A stretch of DNA of 64,000 bases, taken from the NCBI GenBank assembly GCA_021513695.1, contig CP084166.1, forward strand, positions 1,952,001 to 2,016,000, read 5' to 3'. Below are positions 204 to 54,340 of the stretch, piece after piece. Positions within the stretch are counted from its first letter, which is position 1, and every line of letters begins with the position of its first letter. The notes under the pieces are model-generated. The model was not told the origin of the DNA. It saw nothing but the letters and a program-made list of their open reading frames with translations, and ran no database searches. This DNA comes from Candidatus Heimdallarchaeum aukensis (GTDB taxonomy: Archaea > Asgardarchaeota > Heimdallarchaeia > Heimdallarchaeales > Heimdallarchaeaceae). Both the position numbers and the translations under genes were made by a program.

Positions 204-1136
204 TTGATAATAATGGAAAACATAGATAGAATCTCTTCAGGAATTAATGGAATAGATAAATTGCTCTATGGAGGATTTATAAAAAACTCGATCAATTCTA
301 TTGTTGGGAGTAGTGGAACTGGAAAAACAACTTTTGCATTAGCATACCTACAACAAGGAATAATGGCAGGAGACGATGTTTTATATTTGTCATTTGAAGA
401 AGAACCGAAGAAGTTAATATCAGAAGGAAAATCTCTCGGTATTAATCTTGAAGAAAAGCACGAAAACATAAGTGAAGTCATTCATTTAGTAGAAAGTGAG
501 AAAATAGTAGAGTTTATGACAGAGATATTACCTGCACTTGCAAAAAAACTTAAAACTCAACAAGTTAAGCACACAAGAATTGTATTAGATCCTTTAACCC
601 CAATTCTTTGGGAATTCACATCAGAAAGAGAGCAAAGAAGAGTTTTGACAAAAGTCTATAATTACTTAAGCTCTTTAGGAACAGTATTACAAACAGTAGA
701 AGAACCGAATGCATTTGGGCAAACAGATATTGGTGCAAGTGAGACAAGAGTGCCAATTTACTTATCAGATACTGTTATCCACATCCAAAACTTAGGTTTA
801 GGTGGAAAGTACAACCGAACTTGTAAAGTAATAAAATCACGGAAGACTGCACATTTAGAAGGAATTTACCCATTAAGATTTAACTATGGAACAGGAATTG
901 AAATTGAAACAGGGGTTGAACATGAAACATCTTTTAACGCATACTTAGTGGAAAGAAAAAAAGAAATTTTAGAAAAATTGAAACTATGGTCTAAATCTAA
1001 TGATAAAAAACAGCGTGCAATAGCTGAAATTGGGATTGATCTAATAAAAAAACCAAATAGGAAAAATCAAGAGACAACTTACGAGATAATAAAATTACTT
1101 GCAGATAGTGGTATAGTTCAAGAGGTAAAAAGATGA
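204..1136 (+). CDS. KaiC-like RecA-superfamily ATPase
   Basis: Walker A GSSGTGKTT follows the N-terminal 'GIDKLLYGG' motif typical of KaiC/RadA-like archaeal ATPases. The stop overlaps the next gene's start (ATGA). Confidence 0.6.
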   Translation: MIIMENIDRISSGINGIDKLLYGGFIKNSINSIVGSSGTGKTTFALAYLQQGIMAGDDVLYLSFEEEPKKLISEGKSLGINLEEKHENISEVIHLVESEKIVEFMTEILPALAKKLKTQQVKHTRIVLDPLTPILWEFTSEREQRRVLTKVYNYLSSLGTVLQTVEEPNAFGQTDIGASETRVPIYLSDTVIHIQNLGLGGKYNRTCKVIKSRKTAHLEGIYPLRFNYGTGIEIETGVEHETSFNAYLVERKKEILEKLKLWSKSNDKKQRAIAEIGIDLIKKPNRKNQETTYEIIKLLADSGIVQEVKR

Positions 1137-1492
1137 GTTCTATTAATAGAATAAAATCTGAATTAGAAGATTTACTTGAATTAGAAGATGTAGAAGCAGT
1201 GGTATTGTTTAGAATCGACGGAAGTGTAATTGAATCATCATTTGACAATAATTACACAAGCAGAAAAATAAGAGTGTTACAATGGTGTAAAGATAATATC
1301 CCAAGAGTTTCACAAGAAATGAGAGGGAATAACCTTCAAAAAGTCACTTATGAGCTTTCTGACACATGTATTCTATTTTTTGCTATAGGAAAAATTGGAA
1401 TATTGACAACGTTAGCGAACAATACTGCAAATTTGAGTCTATTAGCTGTAGAAACAAAAAGAAAAGCTAGTATAATTGAGAACTATATGTGA
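1133..1492 (+). CDS. Roadblock/LC7 (MglB-like) domain protein
   Basis: About 119 aa. The pattern 'VEAVVLFRIDGSVIESS' resembles the Roadblock/LC7 fold. It is translationally coupled to the upstream ATPase and sits in an operon with a Ras-like GTPase. Confidence 0.5.
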   Translation: MSSINRIKSELEDLLELEDVEAVVLFRIDGSVIESSFDNNYTSRKIRVLQWCKDNIPRVSQEMRGNNLQKVTYELSDTCILFFAIGKIGILTTLANNTANLSLLAVETKRKASIIENYM

Positions 1493-1501
1493 GGGGTTTT
1501 T

Positions 1502-2809
1502 TTGCAAGTAAATTCAGGAATAGTGAGTAATCGCTCTCTCAAAAAAGTAGTAAAAGGGTTAATTAATGATGTAATTTTTGAAATTAAAGGCATACCTGAT
1601 TTCTTACTAATAGCTTTTACATCAAAATATAAGCGATCAGACTATAAAAAAGCACTAGAATTAATAACACAAGAAACAGGAATAAAAAATTTAATTGGAG
1701 GGACATTTCCAACCATAGGAGTCCAAAATGAAATTCCAACAACTCAAGGAGGGGCAGCGTTTACTTTCAAGGGAAACGAAATAAAAGTTCAAAGACCAGT
1801 CATCTACAAAAATATTAGAACAAAGAAAAAGAAGTTTATCAGTGAGTTTCCAAGAATCTACAATTCTATAAAAGCAAAATCAAAAATATCTTTTGTCCTT
1901 TCTACGGGACCAAAACTTCAACCAAATGCGATGGAACAGCTAAAATTACTTGATAGTTATCCTGCAATAAAATATCAAAACATGTTCAATGTACTTGGTT
2001 CAGGGTTGGAATGGTTCTTAGGAAAACAAGGTCTAGGAACTGGAAGTTATATAGATGAATTATTAAATTATTTAGCAATAAATAATGTTTCAGACTTAAT
2101 TGGTGGTGCAACTTTTGATATTGATCTACAAGACAACTATCAGTTTGTAAATAATTTCATTCATAGCAATTCTTTAGTAGGCACCAGTTTCTCATCCGAT
2201 ACGATTAAATTCGGACATAGTTGGGCCTTTGATAAATCAGAAAAGACTAGAGAATACTCTATCACTCATAAATTGAAGAGTGGATATATCCAGAAAATAA
2301 ACGGAGAAAGAGCAAATAACCAGCTTCTACAAATAATGGATCTCCCGAGTAACATATACAATGAATTTTTTGAGAGATTTTCTTACGCAAACGCACTTTA
2401 TCTTTCAGGAATTAAAGAAGAAGATGGCGACTATCATCCATTTATGACAGCAAATCATCCAAAGCTGAAAGGAGTTGTTTCTACCCTACCTCCGAGTAAA
2501 ATAACTAAAAAACCTATAAAAGCAGAGCTGTTCACACAGTCAGGATTGGGAATACAAAGATCAGCTTATGAGTGTGCAAATAAAGCAGTAAAAGAAATTA
2601 TTAATCCAAAATTCGGAATTTTCATCAATTGTGCAAATAGGTTATTGATTGCAGGAGACAAGATTGCTGAAGAAAATAAGAAACTTGCAGAAAGGTTAGG
2701 AGAAGATGTGCCATTCATCACTTTATATTCTGGTTGTGAATTCTCAATTTTCAATAAAAAACCAATGTATACAACTGTTTCTATCCATGGACTCGTAGCT
2801 GGAGAATAA
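1502..2809 (+). CDS. hypothetical protein (435 aa) between the Roadblock and GTPase genes; function unknown, weak FIST-like impression only
   Basis: Long intact ORF on the same strand with a 9-nt gap from the Roadblock gene. I recognise no diagnostic motif. Confidence 0.5.
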   Translation: MQVNSGIVSNRSLKKVVKGLINDVIFEIKGIPDFLLIAFTSKYKRSDYKKALELITQETGIKNLIGGTFPTIGVQNEIPTTQGGAAFTFKGNEIKVQRPVIYKNIRTKKKKFISEFPRIYNSIKAKSKISFVLSTGPKLQPNAMEQLKLLDSYPAIKYQNMFNVLGSGLEWFLGKQGLGTGSYIDELLNYLAINNVSDLIGGATFDIDLQDNYQFVNNFIHSNSLVGTSFSSDTIKFGHSWAFDKSEKTREYSITHKLKSGYIQKINGERANNQLLQIMDLPSNIYNEFFERFSYANALYLSGIKEEDGDYHPFMTANHPKLKGVVSTLPPSKITKKPIKAELFTQSGLGIQRSAYECANKAVKEIINPKFGIFINCANRLLIAGDKIAEENKKLAERLGEDVPFITLYSGCEFSIFNKKPMYTTVSIHGLVAGE

Positions 2810-2851
2810 AAAATTGTGGTGTTTTAAATAGTTAAAGTAGTTGACTTAACA

Positions 2852-3439
2852 ATGATCTCGGAAAATTGGAAAACAAAAAAAACTCTGAAAATTGCAATAT
2901 TGGGTGAAGGTTCTGTAGGAAAGACAACAATATCAAAAAAATATTCTGAAGACTTATCTGAAACAGAAAAAATTACAATGACAAAAGGAGTCGACATTGC
3001 GGTAAAGAATCTTATTCATAAATCTACGCCCATTGCTTTACAAATTTGGGATTTTGCGGGTCAAAAGCAGTTTCGATTTATGATTGATATTTTCCTAAGA
3101 GGAGTAAAAGGAATCGTATATGTCTATGACGTAAACGATATAGAAACATTATACCTGCTTTATGAATTTGTAGAAATTGTGCGAAATTATTTTAAAGAAA
3201 ATAATATCTCCCAGGTCCCAGAAGTACTTGTAGGAAACAAAATTGATATTGGTGATGCAGAAGTTTCAATTGAAGATATATACAGCTTTATGAATACTCA
3301 CAACATTGAAAAGCATTTTCTCGTTAGCGGAATGTATGGAGATAATGTTTATCCATTATTTGATTATTTAATAGAAAAAATAGTCTTTGATGAGTCTAAG
3401 GAGCATATCTCTACAATAAATCAATATTCACTTAAATAA
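2852..3439 (+). CDS. Ras-superfamily small GTPase
   Basis: G1 GEGSVGKTT, G3 WDFAGQ and G4 VGNKID are all present. Confidence 0.75.
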   Translation: MISENWKTKKTLKIAILGEGSVGKTTISKKYSEDLSETEKITMTKGVDIAVKNLIHKSTPIALQIWDFAGQKQFRFMIDIFLRGVKGIVYVYDVNDIETLYLLYEFVEIVRNYFKENNISQVPEVLVGNKIDIGDAEVSIEDIYSFMNTHNIEKHFLVSGMYGDNVYPLFDYLIEKIVFDESKEHISTINQYSLK

Positions 3440-3494
3440 TGACTATAACTCTTTCAATTTCATATGTTTTACAAACTGATAAAGGGAGAAAAAA

Positions 3495-3815
3495 ATGGAA
3501 AAATTTCAACAATTCATTAATAAAACTCTTGTCTGTTCTAAATGTAATAGAAAATTAGACTTCAAAATCGATAGGAAACAACTTGAAGAATTAAGGAATA
3601 GCCAATTATTCAACTTTGTTATAATGCATGCCAACGATCATACTTTAGTAATTTCGGTTGATGGAAGGGGGGAAATTAGAAGATCAAGAATTGCAACCTT
3701 GAATGCTATTGAAGAAGAGAAAAAAAGTAATAATGCTTTTCAAGATATCCAAATTATTGAAGAAAGTAATAACTTACGAGAAGCTTTTGTAAACTGGTTT
3801 GAAAAAAAGAAGTAA
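3495..3815 (+). CDS. small hypothetical protein with N-terminal CxxC
   Basis: 106-aa ORF downstream of the GTPase with a purine-rich stretch (aaagggagaaaaaa) before the ATG. No family recognised. Confidence 0.35.
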   Translation: MEKFQQFINKTLVCSKCNRKLDFKIDRKQLEELRNSQLFNFVIMHANDHTLVISVDGRGEIRRSRIATLNAIEEEKKSNNAFQDIQIIEESNNLREAFVNWFEKKK

Positions 3816-3826
3816 AAAGAGAGAAA

Positions 3827-5119
3827 TTATTTAGGAACTACGTCCTTAACTATTCCTACAGCAACAGTTTGACCCATATCTCTAACTGCAAAACGGCCAA
3901 GTTCTGGGAATTCACTGTATTTTTCAATAACCATGTCTCTTGTGGGGATCATTTTAACTATTGCTCCATCCCCATTCTTCAAGAAGGCTGGCTTATCTTC
4001 GGTTTGGCCTTTACTCATCTTTTTAACAAGTTCAGCAAATCTTACAGCAACTTGGGCAGTTCCTGCATGAATTACTGGAGTGTAACCTGCAGCTATAGCT
4101 GATGGATGTCTAATAACTTGTACTTGAGCTGTGAACTCTGCTGCGATGGTTGGTGGGTTTGAAACATGTCCTACAACGTCTCCTCTACGAACATCTTTCT
4201 TTGATAACCCTTTGCAACTAAATCCGATGTTGTCACCAGGTTCAGCTTTAGGAATTTGCTCATGATGCATTTCAATAGACATGACTTTTGCTTTTTTACC
4301 AGTTGGTTGGAAGATAACTTCATCATTTGGTTTAAGAACACCAGTCTCCACTCTTCCTACTGGAACAGTTCCTATACCAGTAATTGTGTAGACATCTTGA
4401 ACGGGTAATCTAAGAGGTTTGTCTATTGGTTTCTTTGGTACTTCAAATTTATCTAAGGCTTCTAGAATTGTTGGTCCTTTATACCATGGCATTTTGGTGG
4501 ATTTATCTTTTAAGTTATCTCCATCCATACCACTGCAAGGAACAAATTCGACCTTATCTAAATTAAAACCAAAACGTTTTAATTCACGACCCATTTCGTT
4601 TTTAATTTCTTCGTATCGTTCTTGTTTATAATCTGCAAGATCCATTTTATTAACTGCAACAAGGAACTGATCGACACCCAATGTTTTTGCAAGAAGAGCA
4701 TGCTCTCTTGTTTGACCAGTTGCGCTAATTCCTGCCTCAAACTCTCCAGTTCCAGCGCTGACTACTAAGATAGCGGCATCTGCTTGTGAAGTTCCTGTGA
4801 TCATGTTTTTAACAAAGTCTCTATGGCCTGGAGCATCAATGATTGTGAAATAATATTTGTTGGTTTCGAATTTGTAGAAAGCAAGATCGATGGTTACTCC
4901 TCTTTCTCTCTCTTCCTTGAGCTTATCTAAGACCCAAGCAAATTTGAAACTTCCACGGCCGATAGATTCTGCTTCTTTTTCATATTTTGCCATTTCTCTT
5001 TCGCTTATGCCTCCGCATAAATAAAGTAAATGGCCAGTCATTGTTGATTTTCCATGATCAACATGACCAATGATTACTAAATTTAAGTGTGGTTTTTCCT
5101 TTGAACTCATATTTAACAC
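3827..5119 (-). CDS. tuf: translation elongation factor 1-alpha (aEF-1A)
   Basis: GHVDHGKST and DAPGHRDF are present, with EF-Tu/EF-1A conservation along the full length. Confidence 0.95.
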
Positions 5120-18260: not shown

Positions 18261-18367
18261 TGGAGCCCCGAGGGGGGATTTCAAGCTTTTGCTCACAACA
18301 AAGAGCTATTTGAACCCCCGACCTTTACCTTACCAAGGTAACGCTCTACCAGCTGAGCTATCGAGGC
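18261..18367 (-). tRNA. tRNA-Thr (anticodon GGU) with a ~30-nt insertion in the T-arm (putative non-canonical intron)
   Basis: Cloverleaf folded by hand: acceptor GCCTCGA/TCGGGGC, D-arm GCTC-AGCTGGTA-GAGC, anticodon arm TTACC-TTGGTAA-GGTAA, T-stem GGGGG/CCCCC, encoded CCA. An AGCTC...TTGAAAT block with an internal hairpin sits inside the T-loop. One extra C leaves the exact exon/intron junction ambiguous. Confidence 0.6.
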
Positions 18368-38536: not shown

Positions 38537-38622
38537 TGGCTCAGCACTCAAGATCCTCATCACTAATCAGTCAAGGGCTAGACACATCATAGCCACATTA
38601 AATAGTTTATGAGAGTATTTTT

Positions 38623-50889: not shown

Positions 50890-50917
50890 ATAGGCGAAAA
50901 CTGATATCTAAAGTAAT

Positions 50918-53900
50918 CGAACTATGCCTACGCCATGCTGTGGATGACTTGGCTGGGGAACCGATGAAGGTCGTGGTAAGCCGCGAAAGGCCTCGGGGAG
51001 ACGCAAACAGTCTACGATCCGAGGGTCACCGAATGGGGATCCCGACACAGCCTAATAAGTTGTGTCAACCAGTAATGGTGGGGAACGTGGGGAACCGAAA
51101 CATCCAAGTACCCACAGGAAAAGAAAACAATTGTGATTCCGTGAGTAACGGCGAGTGAAAGCGGAACAGGTCAAACCGAATTCCCTTTTCGAAAGATTAG
51201 GGTAGATGTGGTGTTTGTGACTGCAATATGGACCGTCAGCGTGAAGTCGAAGACAATGTGGAACATTGCGCCATAGAGGGTAAAAGCCCCGTAGACGTAA
51301 GCGCTCGGCCTAGCAGGATCAAGACTAGCGTGGCTTGGATTTGTCGCGCAAATATGGGAAAACTATGTCCCAAACCTAAATATTCCCCCAGACCGATAGC
51401 GCACTAGTAGCGTGAGCAAAAGTTGAAAAGTATCCAAAATATGGGAGTGAAAAGACCCTGAAACAGCATGGTAACAGACGTGGATGGCTCGAAAGCGTAG
51501 ATTCTCAGCGAAGGAACTCACCGTGAGGTGTTAGTACGAGCTGAGAGGAGCGGGGTCATCCGTTCCGTCTAGAAACACGGGCCGAGGAGTTCAGATTCGT
51601 GGCGAGCCTAAACGTATGTGGTGGCGTAGCGAAAGCGACCTGCACGCAGCACTTATGTGCCAGGTGCGACGTACGATAAGTGCGTGAAGTCACGGGTCTG
51701 AGACACGAAAGGAGTCGATCTACCCCTGGTTAAGGTGAAGCGCTTCGAAAGGAGCGTGGAGGCCTGAAGGGTTTCTAATATGCAATTTGTTCCTCTGAAC
51801 TGGGGGTAGTGGCAAAAGACCAATCTAGACTCCTGATAGCTTGTTCCCGCCGAAGTATAACCACAGTATAGCGTCACCGGAGGTTGCATGTGAGGTAGAG
51901 CTACGGACGGGTTGTCCCGGGGAGTGAAATCCTCGCCAATCCTTCCAACTCCGAACTTGCATGCGCCGTAGATGGTGGCAGACGGGCGTGTATCCGCAAG
52001 GGATATGGCCGCGAGGGGTTCAACCCAGAGGTTGGTTAAGGGCCCTAAATCCTGGTTAAATGTTAAACTGAATGACGTCCAACGGCTTAGACAATGAGGC
52101 GGTAAGCTTAGAAGCAGCTATCCGTTAAAAAAAGCGTAACAGCTTACTCATCGAGCTGTTGGGCTCAGAAAATGGACGGGGCTAAACCAGGTCCCGATAC
52201 CAATCCGAACTTCAAAAGAGTTTTGGGTAGGCGGGCGATCAGGTTGGGCTGAAGCTGGGGGGTGACTCCCAGTGGACCGGCTTGATTTGCAGATCTCGGC
52301 GGTAGTAGGAGCATAGTGAGGTGAGAATCCTCATCGCCGAAAGCCCAAGGGTTCCTTGGCACTGTTCGTCAGCCAAGGGTTAGTCGGTCCTAAGGGTGAT
52401 CTTAACACGAATCACTCGAAAGGGAAACAGGTTCATATTCCTGTACCGCGCATATAGGTGTGGTGACACAAGCTTTGAGCAGACACTGGTGGGTAGGTGG
52501 CCTAGGAGCGTATCCTAGTTAAATCCCGAATTCTGGGGAGAACCGTTATGGTGAGAACCAGAAGAATGGATGAATAGGCTGGCCATCGGTTGCTGGCTGC
52601 CATCAATCCCAACAGTCCATGAAAATGCGAGAAGAACGATTATGCGCGACCGTACCCAGAACCGTGACAGGTGTGGCTAGCTGAGAAGGCTAAGGCGTGT
52701 TAGGAGAAATCAGGTGAAGGAAATCGGCAAATTAGCCCCGTATCTTGGGTATAAGGGGTGCCTGGAAAGGTGTATGCCTTCCCAGGTCGCAGTGACAAGG
52801 GGCACCCGACTGTTTAATAAAAACATAGCAAACTGCAAGGGTGAAAACCTGTGTACAGTTTGTGAATCCTGGCCGGTGCTGGTGATTGAAACCTGGGTAC
52901 AACCAGGCTAAGACCCAGTAAACGCCGGAGCTAACTATGAGCTTCTTAAGGTAGGCAAATGCCTTGTCTGCTAATTACAGACGTCCATGAAGGGACCAAC
53001 GAGGTGCCCACTGTCTCCACCTGAATCCTACTGAACCCACAGTCCAGCGAACAGTCTGGAATGCACCATCGGGAAGAGAAGACCCTGTAGAGCTTTACTG
53101 CTGTCAGAGGCTGTTGTACTGGTGCTCATACATAGAATAGTCAGGAGGCGTCGATCCTACATTCTCCGGGATGTAGGGGAGCCGACAGTGAAATACTGAC
53201 TTTGAGCATTGGTACGACTCACCTCTTGCGAGGGGGACACCCTCTGCCTGGCAGTTTCACTGGGGCGGTAGCCTCTTGAAAAGATATCAAGAGGGCCCAA
53301 AGCCAAGCTCAACCGGGACAGAAATCCGGTGTAGAGTGCAAGGGCAAAAGCTTGGTTGACTGTGAACTGATAGAGAAGGTTCGCAGATGTTAACGCAGGG
53401 CCTAGCGATCCTTCGCATTGCCCATAGTAGGCGGCGGAGGTGGCGGAAAAGTTACCTCAGGGGTAACTACACTTTGATGTTACACTATCAAAGTGGCTAG
53501 ACAAAAAGGAACTTTTCCTGCATTGCACTTTATCTTTTCAAGGGCACGAAAAAATGAAACAAAAAAATAAAGCTAAGGTGGGTCAAATTTTACCCGAATG
53601 AATAATATACCGCAAAAAAAAGTTATCGAGTGAGGATTACTTACAAGTTTTCGCCTAATGGTCAAAAGGAAAACTTGAGCGGATTAGAACGGATCCAACA
53701 TCTGCCTTAACCATCAAGAAAAAAGACCCTTGGAAAAGATGAAGAGCCATTTTGAAAGTGTGAGGTCAAGAGGTTATTAGATCGGTAACTTGCCTTAAGC
53801 CGAGGCTGACAACTAATCTAATAACCGAAGTCGAAAAGACTGGTGTAGCCCTGAACAGAGTTGTCGTGGGTAAGAGTTCACATCGACCTCACGGCTTGCT

Positions 53901-54340
53901 ACCTCGATGTCGGCTCTTCCTAGCTTGGAGGTGATTCAGCTTCCAAGAGTGGGGTTGTTCGCCCATTAAAAGGGAACGTGAGCTGGGTTTAGACCGTTGT
54001 GAGACAGGTTGGATTCTATCTGATGGTGCTGGCGGGAGATTGAGAGTAAAACCTCCACAGTACGAGAGGAACAGGCGGTTGGGGCCTCTGGTGTATCGGT
54101 TGTCCTCCCGGGCATTGCCGAGTAGCTAAGCCCTTGAAGATAAGAGCGGAAAGCATCTATGCTCGAAGCTTCTCTCGAAACGAGTCTCCCATTCTGTACC
54201 TTTTGGGGGCTGGTGACAGCAACCTTTGGTATAGACGAGAGCACGGAAAGAAGATCCGGTTGATAGAGCAGGGGTGTGCGCGTCGAGCTTCGGCGAGATG
54301 TTTAGCCCACTGCTACTAATCGCTCAAGCGTAGTTCGACC
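50918..54340 (+). rRNA. 23S (large-subunit) rRNA, interrupted by a ~389-nt insertion
   Basis: Conserved 23S blocks recognised by eye: 5' GGATGACTTGGCTGGGGAACCGATGAAGG, GACTGTTTAATAAAAACATAGC, GGGGTAAC...AGAGTTCACATCGAC...CTCGATGTCGGCTCTTCC. The 5' and 3' ends pair (GAACTATGC / GCGTAGTTC). GC is about 50%, against about 30% for the genome. Confidence 0.9.
53468..53856 (+). other. putative 23S rRNA intron (non-coding, AT-rich)
   Basis: The conserved domain V sequence GGGGTAAC|AGAGTTGTCGTGGGTAAGAGTTCACATCGAC is split by about 389 nt of AT-rich sequence. The boundaries are ambiguous by 2-3 nt. Confidence 0.6.

Follow-up and report, generated by a model that had tools for sequence, protein, structure and literature searches.

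The Asgard archaeon Candidatus Heimdallarchaeum aukensis carries, on the forward strand of contig CP084166.1 (GenBank assembly GCA_021513695.1), a run of five closely spaced genes in which a KaiC-like ATPase, a Roadblock protein, a FIST protein, a Rab/Ras-like GTPase and a small putative zinc protein are encoded one after the other. The window analyzed here is the whole 64,000-nucleotide stretch from position 1,952,001 to position 2,016,000 of that contig; it has a G+C content of about 30% and also holds an archaeal 23S rRNA gene and an aEF1A gene. Coordinates given without a locus label are those of the window.

All five open reading frames lie on the + strand. The first (213-1136, with an alternative start at 204) encodes a single-domain, RecA-superfamily KaiC-like ATPase of 307 aa, recognized by Pfam PF06745. 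It is followed by a 119-aa Roadblock/LC7-superfamily protein of the AF0774 subfamily (1133-1492), assigned through its PF27410 annotation and through family profiles; by a stand-alone FIST_N + FIST_C protein of 435 aa (1502-2809), identified by Pfam and by an AlphaFold2 (AF2) model; by a Rab/Ras-like small GTPase of 195 aa (2852-3439), which matches Pfam Ras and Rab structures in profile searches of the PDB; and by an orphan, putatively zinc-binding protein of 106 aa (3495-3815), whose CxxC…HxxxH pattern was recognized from residue conservation. The stop codon of the KaiC gene at 1136 and the Roadblock start at 1133 share a 4-nt ATGA overlap, which makes the two a translationally coupled pair, and the spacers further down measure 9 nt (Roadblock-FIST, 1492->1502), 42 nt (FIST-GTPase, 2809->2852) and 55 nt (GTPase-small protein, 3439->3495). 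An earlier sequence-only reading had described this arrangement as a same-strand operon of a KaiC-like ATPase, a Roadblock/LC7 protein, a 435-aa unknown, a Ras-superfamily GTPase and a small CxxC protein. The four identities that it named are borne out, and so are its open reading frames, gene order and spacing, with two corrections: the FIST-GTPase spacer is 42 rather than 43 nt, and the most likely start of the first gene is ATG 213 and not TTG 204, because the orthologues and the public gene call give a protein of 307 aa.

The family of the first protein is clear. PF06745 matches residues 11-235 of the 310-aa open reading frame (E 4.3e-34, 118.3 bits against a cut-off of 26.6), and the top PDB match in a profile search is the KaiC CI domain (2e-37). 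The ATPase core takes up about 235 aa, and some 70 aa form a helical tail at the C-terminus. Across 26 sequences, conservation is complete or nearly so in Walker A (GSSGTGKT), the catalytic Glu pair (LSFEEEP) and Walker B (RIVLDP); the K-x-R at the sensor/Arg-finger position is conserved as well, IKSRKTAH aligning with LKFRGTSH of KaiC. Judged by these motifs, the ATPase is apparently active. A circadian clock KaiC can be ruled out: the protein has one domain in 307 aa against the duplicated CI+CII of about 500 aa, and it scores 70.7 bits with the NCBIfam circ_KaiC model, whose cut-off is 546. The cluster contains no KaiB-like (thioredoxin-fold) gene and offers neither a KaiB nor a KaiA partner.

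The kinship of the second protein takes more effort to establish. The sequence-only reading had expected a hit to the Roadblock/LC7 profile PF03259; the window protein stays under the threshold of that profile, which matches just 6 of its 22 orthologues at E<0.1, and public annotation places the protein in a separate, newer family, PF27410 (AF0774). We nevertheless accept it on profile evidence as a divergent member of the Roadblock superfamily, because family profiles align end to end with Roadblock proteins of solved structure. The profile built from the orthologues does so with the Robl_LC7 domain-containing protein 7f8m_A (4.8e-5). A broader Roadblock profile finds 7f8m_A at 2.2e-14, 9jue_D at 1.2e-12 and the dynein light chain roadblock at 1e-5, and reaches CvnB5 (3leq_A, 2e-4), MglB (2e-4) and the C-terminal Roadblock domain of Gtr1 (9e-3). 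The expected relationship holds, then, at the level of the family. Roadblock proteins such as MglB, CvnB and Ragulator act as platforms or GTPase-activating proteins (GAPs) for NTPases (PMC4316618).

For the third gene, which the sequence-only reading left as an unknown while proposing a search with FIST profiles, that search gives an answer. FIST_N (PF08495) matches the 435-aa protein at E 3.8e-7 with 30.6 bits, over the curated cut-off of 23.2, and FIST_C (PF10442) at 4e-4 with 20.9 bits, under the cut-off of 28.5; both domains appear in the precomputed annotation of most orthologues. The AF2 model is confident (predicted local distance difference test, pLDDT, 91.3; predicted TM-score, pTM, 0.92), and its significant fold matches in the PDB are four FIST-domain chains of FBXO22 only (E 1.9e-7 to 3.1e-6), the best being 8ua3_C of human FBXO22 (E 1.9e-7, prob 1.0), at about 10% identity and TM-scores of 0.46-0.59. 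A sequence-profile search of the PDB with the FIST family returned no match. Within the family 74 columns are invariant, C358, C377, R380, D386, K387 and H429 among them. Profile and model together identify the 435-aa protein as a FIST protein. In sequence it is 100% identical to a protein recorded for Candidatus Heimdallarchaeum aukensis. Its position had suggested the role of guanine nucleotide exchange factor (GEF), effector or sensor. We know of no GEF activity in FIST proteins, and the GEF or effector framing is not borne out; amino-acid binding by FIST domains was reportedly proposed by Borziak and Zhulin in 2007. The sensor role has a precedent in NosP, a stand-alone FIST-FIST_C protein that is the auxiliary sensor to NahK, its cognate kinase (PMC8846402), and by this analogy we take the FIST protein to be the presumed sensor or input subunit.

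The fourth protein is a small GTPase of the Ras superfamily. Its Pfam matches are Ras (1.1e-26), Roc (3e-20), Arf (4e-17) and Gtr1_RagA (3.5e-8, covering the G domain), and its best PDB matches are Rab18 (3.6e-22), then Rab1, Rab3 and Rab35, with the Thorarchaeota Rab 7ezb at 1.4e-17. The G1, G3 and G4 motifs, already read as intact from the single sequence, prove conserved over 26 sequences, G1 (GEGSVGKT) and G3 (WDFAGQ) fully and G4 (NKID) almost fully. T44 of G2 and the catalytic Gln of G3 (DFAGQ) are conserved too; G5 is an atypical VSG. With these motifs the GTPase is apparently active. Its C-terminus (...STINQYSLK) contains no cysteine and hence no prenylation motif of the eukaryotic Rab type, and at 195 aa the protein has no C-terminal Roadblock domain of the kind found in Rag/Gtr proteins.

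The last gene of the block encodes a candidate adaptor or effector of this GTPase. C14, C17, H45 and H49 of the small protein are invariant in 28 sequences, with 27 residues between the two pairs, unlike a classical finger; after a beta-rich core comes a linker that varies and, at the C-terminus, a helix that is conserved. The protein belongs to no Pfam or NCBIfam family. Its homologues form 54 clusters, none of them with a Pfam domain, and all those with an organism name come from Heimdallarchaeota or Heimdallarchaeaceae. The predicted structure matched no known fold, and a profile search of the PDB gave marginal matches only (Cas2 at 0.019, EnvZ DHp at 0.1-0.5). A mini longin/Roadblock fold, which the b-b-a-b-b-b-a layout might call to mind, is unsupported, the hhalign comparison with the Roadblock family being negative.

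To see how far this arrangement is shared, we scanned one genome per GTDB species with FIST motifs, a procedure that finds only FIST proteins keeping two short motifs. The scan gave 27 loci, one per genome, and those with a taxon name belong to Heimdallarchaeota or Heimdallarchaeaceae, including AB_125 and Ca. H. endolithica. Every locus that is long enough among these 27 other species-level genomes carries these five genes in the order of the window and all on one strand, so the neighbourhood whose conservation the sequence-only reading had put up for checking is indeed kept in relatives. Identity to the window proteins is 60-65% for KaiC, 44-60% for Roadblock, 43-52% for FIST, 54-60% for the GTPase and 45-60% for the small protein, and rises above these values only in the sister species. 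The ATGA overlap of KaiC and Roadblock is kept in 23 of 25 other loci; the remaining spacers mostly measure 9-12, 24 and 22-24 nt, the FIST-GTPase spacer usually being 23-24 nt. On this comparison of gene order, the five-gene arrangement is far beyond chance.

The flanks are less stable than the block. In the window an aEF1A gene (3827-5119, - strand) runs towards the 3' end of the operon, and aEF1A lies downstream in the Heimdallarchaeum lineage and three others; in the main group its place is taken by convergent ribosomal stalk genes P1-P0-L1 (L012:10395-12407, - strand), followed by a HerA-like ATPase. That the block is kept despite such rearrangement of its flank argues for selection on the cluster. 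We rejected aEF1A itself as a component of the system, since its gene runs in the opposite direction, towards the operon, and gives way to the stalk genes in most lineages. In all lineages checked, translation components are encoded convergently at the 3' end of the operon, which may be coincidence. Another pair of genes accompanies the operon in most loci, namely a 433-aa protein with weak winged-helix matches (L001:4284-5585, +) and a 704-aa RPA-like OB-fold protein (L001:5716-7830, +); the orientation of this pair and its distance to the operon vary.

A different picture of the system emerges when one starts from the Roadblock protein. We searched 1.84 billion representative proteins exhaustively with the Roadblock profile in HMMER, which yielded 54 clusters below an E-value of 1e-3, five of them below 1e-30, and looked up the genomic context of eleven clusters, nine contigs being informative. 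A KaiC gene of 287-302 aa adjoins the AF0774-type Roadblock in 8 of the 9 informative contexts, mostly as the gene just upstream; in three of these the start and stop codons overlap. A FIST or FIST-like (AF0772_C) protein adjoins in four contexts, and in one a V4R protein is found there. No separate GTPase gene was seen in the Roadblock contexts examined outside the Heimdall-type operon. The sequence-only reading had cast the Roadblock protein as a partner of the GTPase to which a KaiC ATPase was joined; against that view speaks a subfamily that follows KaiC in 8 of 9 contexts and is accompanied by FIST or FIST-like proteins in lineages that show no separate GTPase gene.

A more divergent lineage (L034/L035) has KaiC–Roadblock–FIST–GTPase. 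In L040/L041 (L040:4863-7613) KaiC overlaps Roadblock and is followed by a 455-aa protein with FIST_N over its cut-off (4.4e-5) and AF0772_C, and L043/L044 (L043:7141-9795), from an NCBI archaeal assembly, has the same overlap followed by a 453-aa protein with weak FIST/AF0772_C similarity. The order KaiC–AF0774 Roadblock–FIST or FIST-like protein (about 440-455 aa) is met, in all, in the window, L040/L041, L043/L044 and L034/L035. Shorter contexts show the pair: a cut KaiC gene overlaps Roadblock in L037; KaiC–Roadblock stands at a contig end in L042; and a cut KaiC gene precedes Roadblock and a second Robl_LC7 protein in L031. L038 (1-2864) reads FIST (cut)–KaiC–Roadblock–V4R (PF02830, 1e-10)–membrane protein, and in L039 Roadblock and a convergent KaiC gene stand two genes apart beside methanol-methyltransferase genes. 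L032/L033 have no KaiC gene, the Roadblock being fused to a Ras-like domain. The KaiC proteins beside these related Roadblocks are 33-56% identical to that of the window and all 287-308 aa long, and their C-terminal tails resemble its tail, with a common W...(D/E/N/S)P motif. Two features of these contigs may be recorded in passing: the V4R/TRAPPC3-type domain of L038 occupies the slot that FIST has in the Heimdall operon, and a UbiA prenyltransferase gene adjoins the triad in both L040 and L043, whose contigs are archaeal and not of Heimdall type.

Taken together, these contexts look like an older archaeal module of KaiC, AF0774 Roadblock and FIST, to which the GTPase and the small protein were added in Heimdallarchaeaceae. 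The two added genes are seen only in that family and one closely related lineage, and we read them as a lineage-specific addition because the core occurs elsewhere without a separate GTPase gene. The consecutive Pfam entries AF0774 (PF27410) and AF0772_C (PF27411) suggest that curators know the triad.

One close relative of the Roadblock protein brings the two folds together in a single chain. P0136, which ranks fourth in the exhaustive Roadblock-profile search with 146 bits, is a fusion of an AF0774-type Roadblock (residues 3-120) with a Ras-family domain (173-332), encoded at L032:6411-7424 (+) and L033:1198-2211 (+) in a neighbourhood without a KaiC or FIST gene. Between its Ras-like domain and the window GTPase, the switch II region aligns at 32% identity. 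As a natural fusion, P0136 argues for direct contact of the Roadblock and Ras-like folds.

The DNA upstream of the operon holds a further shared element. Between KaiC and the divergent gene on its 5' side lies an intergenic region of 77 nt (136-212), presumed to be the promoter region for both directions; a TATA-like TTTATATAA precedes the KaiC ATG by about 28 nt. In all lineages bar Heimdallarchaeum a 20-mer, AAATTGTGGAGTTTATTTAG, stands about 45 nt upstream of the KaiC start (for example at L012:6662-6681). Its exact 12-mer ATTGTGGWGTTT is found at this distance in 22 loci, mostly once per locus of about 17 kb; two further exact matches occur, in L005 and at a second site of L029, and variants are present in L004, L005 and L007. 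The motif AAATTGTGGAGTTTATTTAG is not found in the KaiC upstream region of the window. A copy, aaATTGTGGTGTTTTAAATAG, is located instead at 2811-2831 (+) and begins some 39 nt ahead of the GTPase gene. This copy is the sole match to ATTGTGGWGTTT with at most one mismatch in the 64-kb window, where 1.3 would be expected by chance, so that the count alone is not significant and the weight lies on its position. Similar copies stand in the FIST-GTPase spacer of L024, L007 and L035, which makes four lineages together with the window, and L007 has both sites. The motif is probably an operon-specific promoter or operator, consisting of a TATA-like TTTATTTA or TTTTAAAT preceded by TTGTGGWG, and the copy at 2811-2831 may act within the operon as a promoter of the GTPase and small-protein genes, which in some lineages could then make up a second transcription unit under the same control. 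As both parts of the operon share the motif, they are probably co-regulated. A scan for bacterial sigma-70 promoters and intrinsic terminators showed no enrichment, with models that are not applicable to archaea.

On the other side of this intergenic region, the window begins with the first 45 codons of a gene (1-135, - strand; full gene L001:8245-9003) for a 252-aa winged-helix repeat protein that resembles UFL1 and DDRGK1 in Pfam and in PDB profile searches. It matches the Pfam family E3_UFM1_ligase (PF09743) at 2e-8 with 34.7 bits against a cut-off of 23.2; 12 of 14 orthologues match PF09743 and 9 of 14 a DDRGK domain; and the family profile matches the DDRGK1-UFL1 fusion 8b9x_A at 6.6e-8. 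Across lineages with unlike outer flanks the gene stays beside KaiC, in most cases divergently oriented and, in L007, on the strand of the operon. We take its product for a probable component or regulator associated with the system, and as a winged-helix protein it might regulate the operon. Asgard homologues of UFL1 and DDRGK1 are known, without a known function (PMC10183829), and their linkage to KaiC would be a first genomic lead to what such proteins did before UFM1 (PMC10183829).

We propose that the products of the five genes form one cytoplasmic signal-transduction complex in two layers. We regard this overall picture as equally likely to be right or wrong, and each single arrow within it as much weaker than the whole. 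The first layer would consist of the KaiC-type ATPase, probably oligomeric by analogy with KaiC and with archaeal KaiC-like proteins, together with the AF0774 Roadblock and the FIST protein. FIST would be the input, binding a small ligand or cofactor (or a partner) in the manner of NosP, for which this is heme/NO, and its binding would shift the ATPase or autophosphorylation state of KaiC. In KaiC-like ATPases partner binding varies with the phosphorylation state, and a 'second component' is required (PMC4858521); the Roadblock protein may be this second component, reading the nucleotide or phospho-state of KaiC in the place that KaiB takes in cyanobacteria. The second layer, confined to Heimdallarchaeaceae and the one close lineage, would use the Rab/Ras-like GTPase and the C2H2-type zinc protein as output. 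Roadblock would also dock the GTPase as a GAP-type platform, as MglB, CvnB and Ragulator do, such that the state of KaiC sets the GTP/GDP state of the GTPase, with the zinc protein acting as adaptor or effector. The UFL1/DDRGK1-like protein would be a sixth partner or a target.

Several observations weigh against this proposal. We infer all of its physical contacts, the direction of the signal, the ligand and the output. The window Roadblock protein scores 16.6 bits with PF03259, under the cut-off of 23. In P0136 the Ras-like domain no longer has a P-loop or a G3 motif (the corresponding stretches read IVGNSNLLG and QIWLVSSNEKF), and since the domain is degenerate, the fusion speaks for an association of folds and not for regulation of an active GTPase. 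FIST domains can also bind proteins, as in FBXO22, so a ligand sensor is not the sole reading of the third gene. The internal motif means that the GTPase and zinc-protein genes may be separately transcribed in some lineages, including that of the window. The metal site of the small protein is putative, being a residue pattern only, and its predicted structure is of moderate quality (pLDDT 71). Finally, the genomic contexts outside the Heimdall lineage are a small sample, several of the contigs ending within the cluster.

A bolder version of the two-layer complex would make it a hybrid, Asgard-specific machine, in which FIST gates a KaiC switch and a shared Roadblock protein passes the drive of that switch on to the Rab-like GTPase, as a prokaryotic forerunner of the eukaryotic Ragulator-Rag logic of sensor, Roadblock scaffold and GTPase, with its output passing through the UFL1/DDRGK1-like protein to the ribosome or translation. 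We consider this a long shot; if true, it would supply a UFM1-independent function for the Asgard homologues of UFL1 and DDRGK1.

The evidence on the Roadblock protein also admits a system centred on the GTPase, with Roadblock as its MglB-like GAP, the FIST protein as GEF or effector and KaiC as an accessory input of energy or timing. The reach of the Roadblock profile to MglB, CvnB and the C-terminal domain of Gtr1 would fit such a system, as would the fusion in P0136, the intact catalytic Gln and G motifs, and the known Roadblock-GTPase operons, which include MglAB and the conservon (PMC4316618) and an Asgard operon of LAMTOR1-like, Rab-like and DENN proteins. Yet the AF0774 subfamily travels with KaiC and FIST-like proteins in archaeal contigs that show no separate GTPase gene, and the tightest coupling of the operon, the ATGA overlap, joins Roadblock to KaiC and not to the GTPase. 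The GTPase lacks an MglA-type G3, and a GEF activity of FIST would be, to our knowledge, without example. We judge a GTPase-centred switch unlikely.

The same adjacency could reflect two unrelated modules, KaiC–Roadblock–FIST and the GTPase with its zinc protein, that are neighbours without functional coupling. Such independence would account for the promoter-like motif before the GTPase gene in four lineages, that of the window included, and for the absence of the GTPase and zinc-protein genes from the clusters seen outside the Heimdall lineage. It sits badly with the constancy of adjacency, order and strand in every long-enough locus of the 27 genomes despite changing flanks, and with the 23-24-nt FIST-GTPase spacer of most lineages, which is too short to hold a promoter of its own. 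Where there is a second promoter-like site, its motif is the rare one that also marks the promoter region of KaiC, and P0136 joins a Roadblock from one half to a Ras-like domain from the other. Two uncoupled modules are, in our estimate, improbable.

We give similarly little credence to nutrient sensing of the Rag/Ragulator type, in which the FIST protein would be an amino-acid sensor, Roadblock a scaffold and the GTPase Rag-like, with a signal to the ribosome through the UFL1/DDRGK1-like protein. The Gtr1_RagA match of the GTPase, the reach of the Roadblock profile to the Roadblock domain of Gtr1, the conserved UFL1/DDRGK1-like neighbour and the convergent aEF1A or P1/P0/L1 genes downstream are the observations in its favour; but Rab and Ras profiles outscore Rag by far, the C-terminal Roadblock domain that defines Rag proteins is absent from the GTPase, and the loci examined contain no TOR-like kinase. 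The link to translation may be chance, because the genes concerned are convergent, differ by lineage and are common.

KaiC-family ATPases and Roadblock proteins (arCOG02603) are frequent in archaeal type IV pilus loci (PMC4858521), and a regulator of archaellum or pilus motility or of polarity, after the example of ArlH/KaiC-like ATPases and of MglA/MglB, has to be weighed on that account. The similarity of the KaiC-like ATPase to the NCBIfam ArlH model is weak (2e-10, 40.7 bits) and far under the cut-off of 215, and genes for pilins, ArlI/J or TadC were not found in the annotated flanks of one representative per flank arrangement, which leaves a motility role very improbable. Anti-virus defence or carriage as mobile-element cargo is hardly worth entertaining: a transposase adjoins one distant KaiC–Roadblock pair (L031), and PADLOC gives mad8 at 2.4e-6 in the P-loop region of KaiC and PDC-M39B at 1e-3 in the small protein, but we reject this explanation because the PADLOC matches are weak and partial, with none for the Roadblock, FIST, GTPase and UFL1-like proteins, and the operon occupies a conserved chromosomal site among housekeeping genes, as a single locus in each of the 27 genomes, with a GC content (0.31-0.32) equal to that of its surroundings.

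Some further features of the window may be noted. A second Ras-like GTPase (Ras 1.3e-40), whose 254 aa include an extension of about 78 aa at the N-terminus, is encoded in the segment 59803-63392 (- strand), directly downstream of a 924-aa ATPase of HerA/DUF87 type and followed by genes for S19e, a PDCD5-like protein, L31e and eIF6; main-group loci likewise have a HerA-like gene on the far side of the stalk genes. The 23S rRNA match (50916-54339, +) spans 3424 nt against a model of 2987 positions, about 440 extra bases that may be expansion segments or an intron, and no match to a 16S rRNA gene was found anywhere in the 64-kb window. A tRNA match at 18300-18361 (-) covers model positions 7-64 only, with 35.4 bits, and a C/D-box small RNA matches at 38538-38594 (-) with 46.7 bits.

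The interest of the two-layer arrangement lies in the partners that it assigns. Asgard genomes encode dozens of small GTPases and Roadblock/longin proteins, and the operon is a rare case in which a GTPase can be matched to likely partners: for one Rab-like GTPase it names a Roadblock protein, a sensor, an ATPase and a small zinc-type protein as candidates. It ties the 'KaiC hub' signalling of archaea to GTPase signalling of a eukaryote-like kind, in one family and one close lineage, and suggests a route of assembly in which a GTPase output was apparently grafted on an older archaeal KaiC–Roadblock–FIST core. All five proteins are small, apparently soluble and suited to reconstitution, and the family has circularized Heimdallarchaeum genomes.

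The sequence-only reading had held that a KaiC-type ATPase combined with a GTPase switch is not a described system, and we likewise found no paper on one. No report of a system of KaiC, GTPase, Roadblock and FIST turned up in the literature covered, which does not include Makarova et al. 2017, and searches on FIST in Asgard archaea, on KaiC with FIST, on KaiC with a Roadblock partner and a small GTPase, and on AF0774 returned none. On the gene content we rate the operon as a variant of known Roadblock-GTPase and KaiC-hub signalling that is itself undescribed, and of which we infer the mechanism.

Archaeal KaiC-like ATPases were reportedly portrayed as 'signal transduction hubs' by Makarova, Galperin and Koonin (mBio, 2017). 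Their paper is cited in PMC5847659 and PMC4858521. The present operon resembles them in its single-domain KaiC ATPase with intact motifs, its small partner proteins and its sensor domain, and the idea of a 'second component' (PMC4858521) fits the translationally coupled Roadblock. The FIST protein has its own parallels. Like NosP, which is encoded with NahK, it is a FIST_N+FIST_C protein of roughly 400 aa encoded with an ATP-using enzyme that it presumably regulates (PMC8846402); the partner of NosP, however, is a histidine kinase and not a KaiC-type ATPase, and the generic FIST score is low here (30.6 bits). FBXO22 provides, with its FIST domain, the sole solved structure matching the 435-aa model, and differs in having an F-box and in using FIST to bind protein substrates.

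Known Roadblock-GTPase systems form the other side of the comparison. In the MglA/MglB polarity switch of Myxococcus and Thermus a Roadblock protein is likewise encoded with a small Ras-like GTPase, and our profile matches MglB; but the two genes are adjacent there, whereas here FIST separates Roadblock from the GTPase and Roadblock is coupled to KaiC, and the G3 motif of MglA lacks the Asp that WDFAGQ has. In another Asgard operon (Liu et al., bioRxiv 10.1101/2020.10.19.343400) a DENN-domain protein is encoded with a LAMTOR1-like Roadblock and a Rab-like GTPase, and the pairing of Roadblock with a Rab-like GTPase is common to both operons. The operon with DENN occurs in most Asgard lineages, whereas the present operon, found in Heimdallarchaeaceae and one related lineage only, has FIST as its third component and adds KaiC and the zinc-type protein; a DENN domain has no Pfam match in any of the five proteins.

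The closest known system in logic and gene order is the conservon of Streptomyces and other actinobacteria (CvnA–CvnB–CvnC–CvnD; PMC4316618), in which an ATP-using protein of kinase type, a Roadblock protein, a protein of a third fold and a Ras-like GTPase are likewise encoded in one operon. Two of the four defining components are replaced: CvnA is histidine-kinase-like where the present operon has a RecA-fold KaiC, and CvnC is a DUF742 protein where it has FIST, with no Pfam match to HATPase or DUF742 in the operon proteins. The operon of Heimdallarchaeum differs further in the canonical DxxGQ of its GTPase, which scores best against Rab and Ras, in its extra C2H2-type small protein and in its Asgard host, and it keeps in common with the conservon an ATP-using enzyme, a Roadblock protein and a Ras-like GTPase within one operon.

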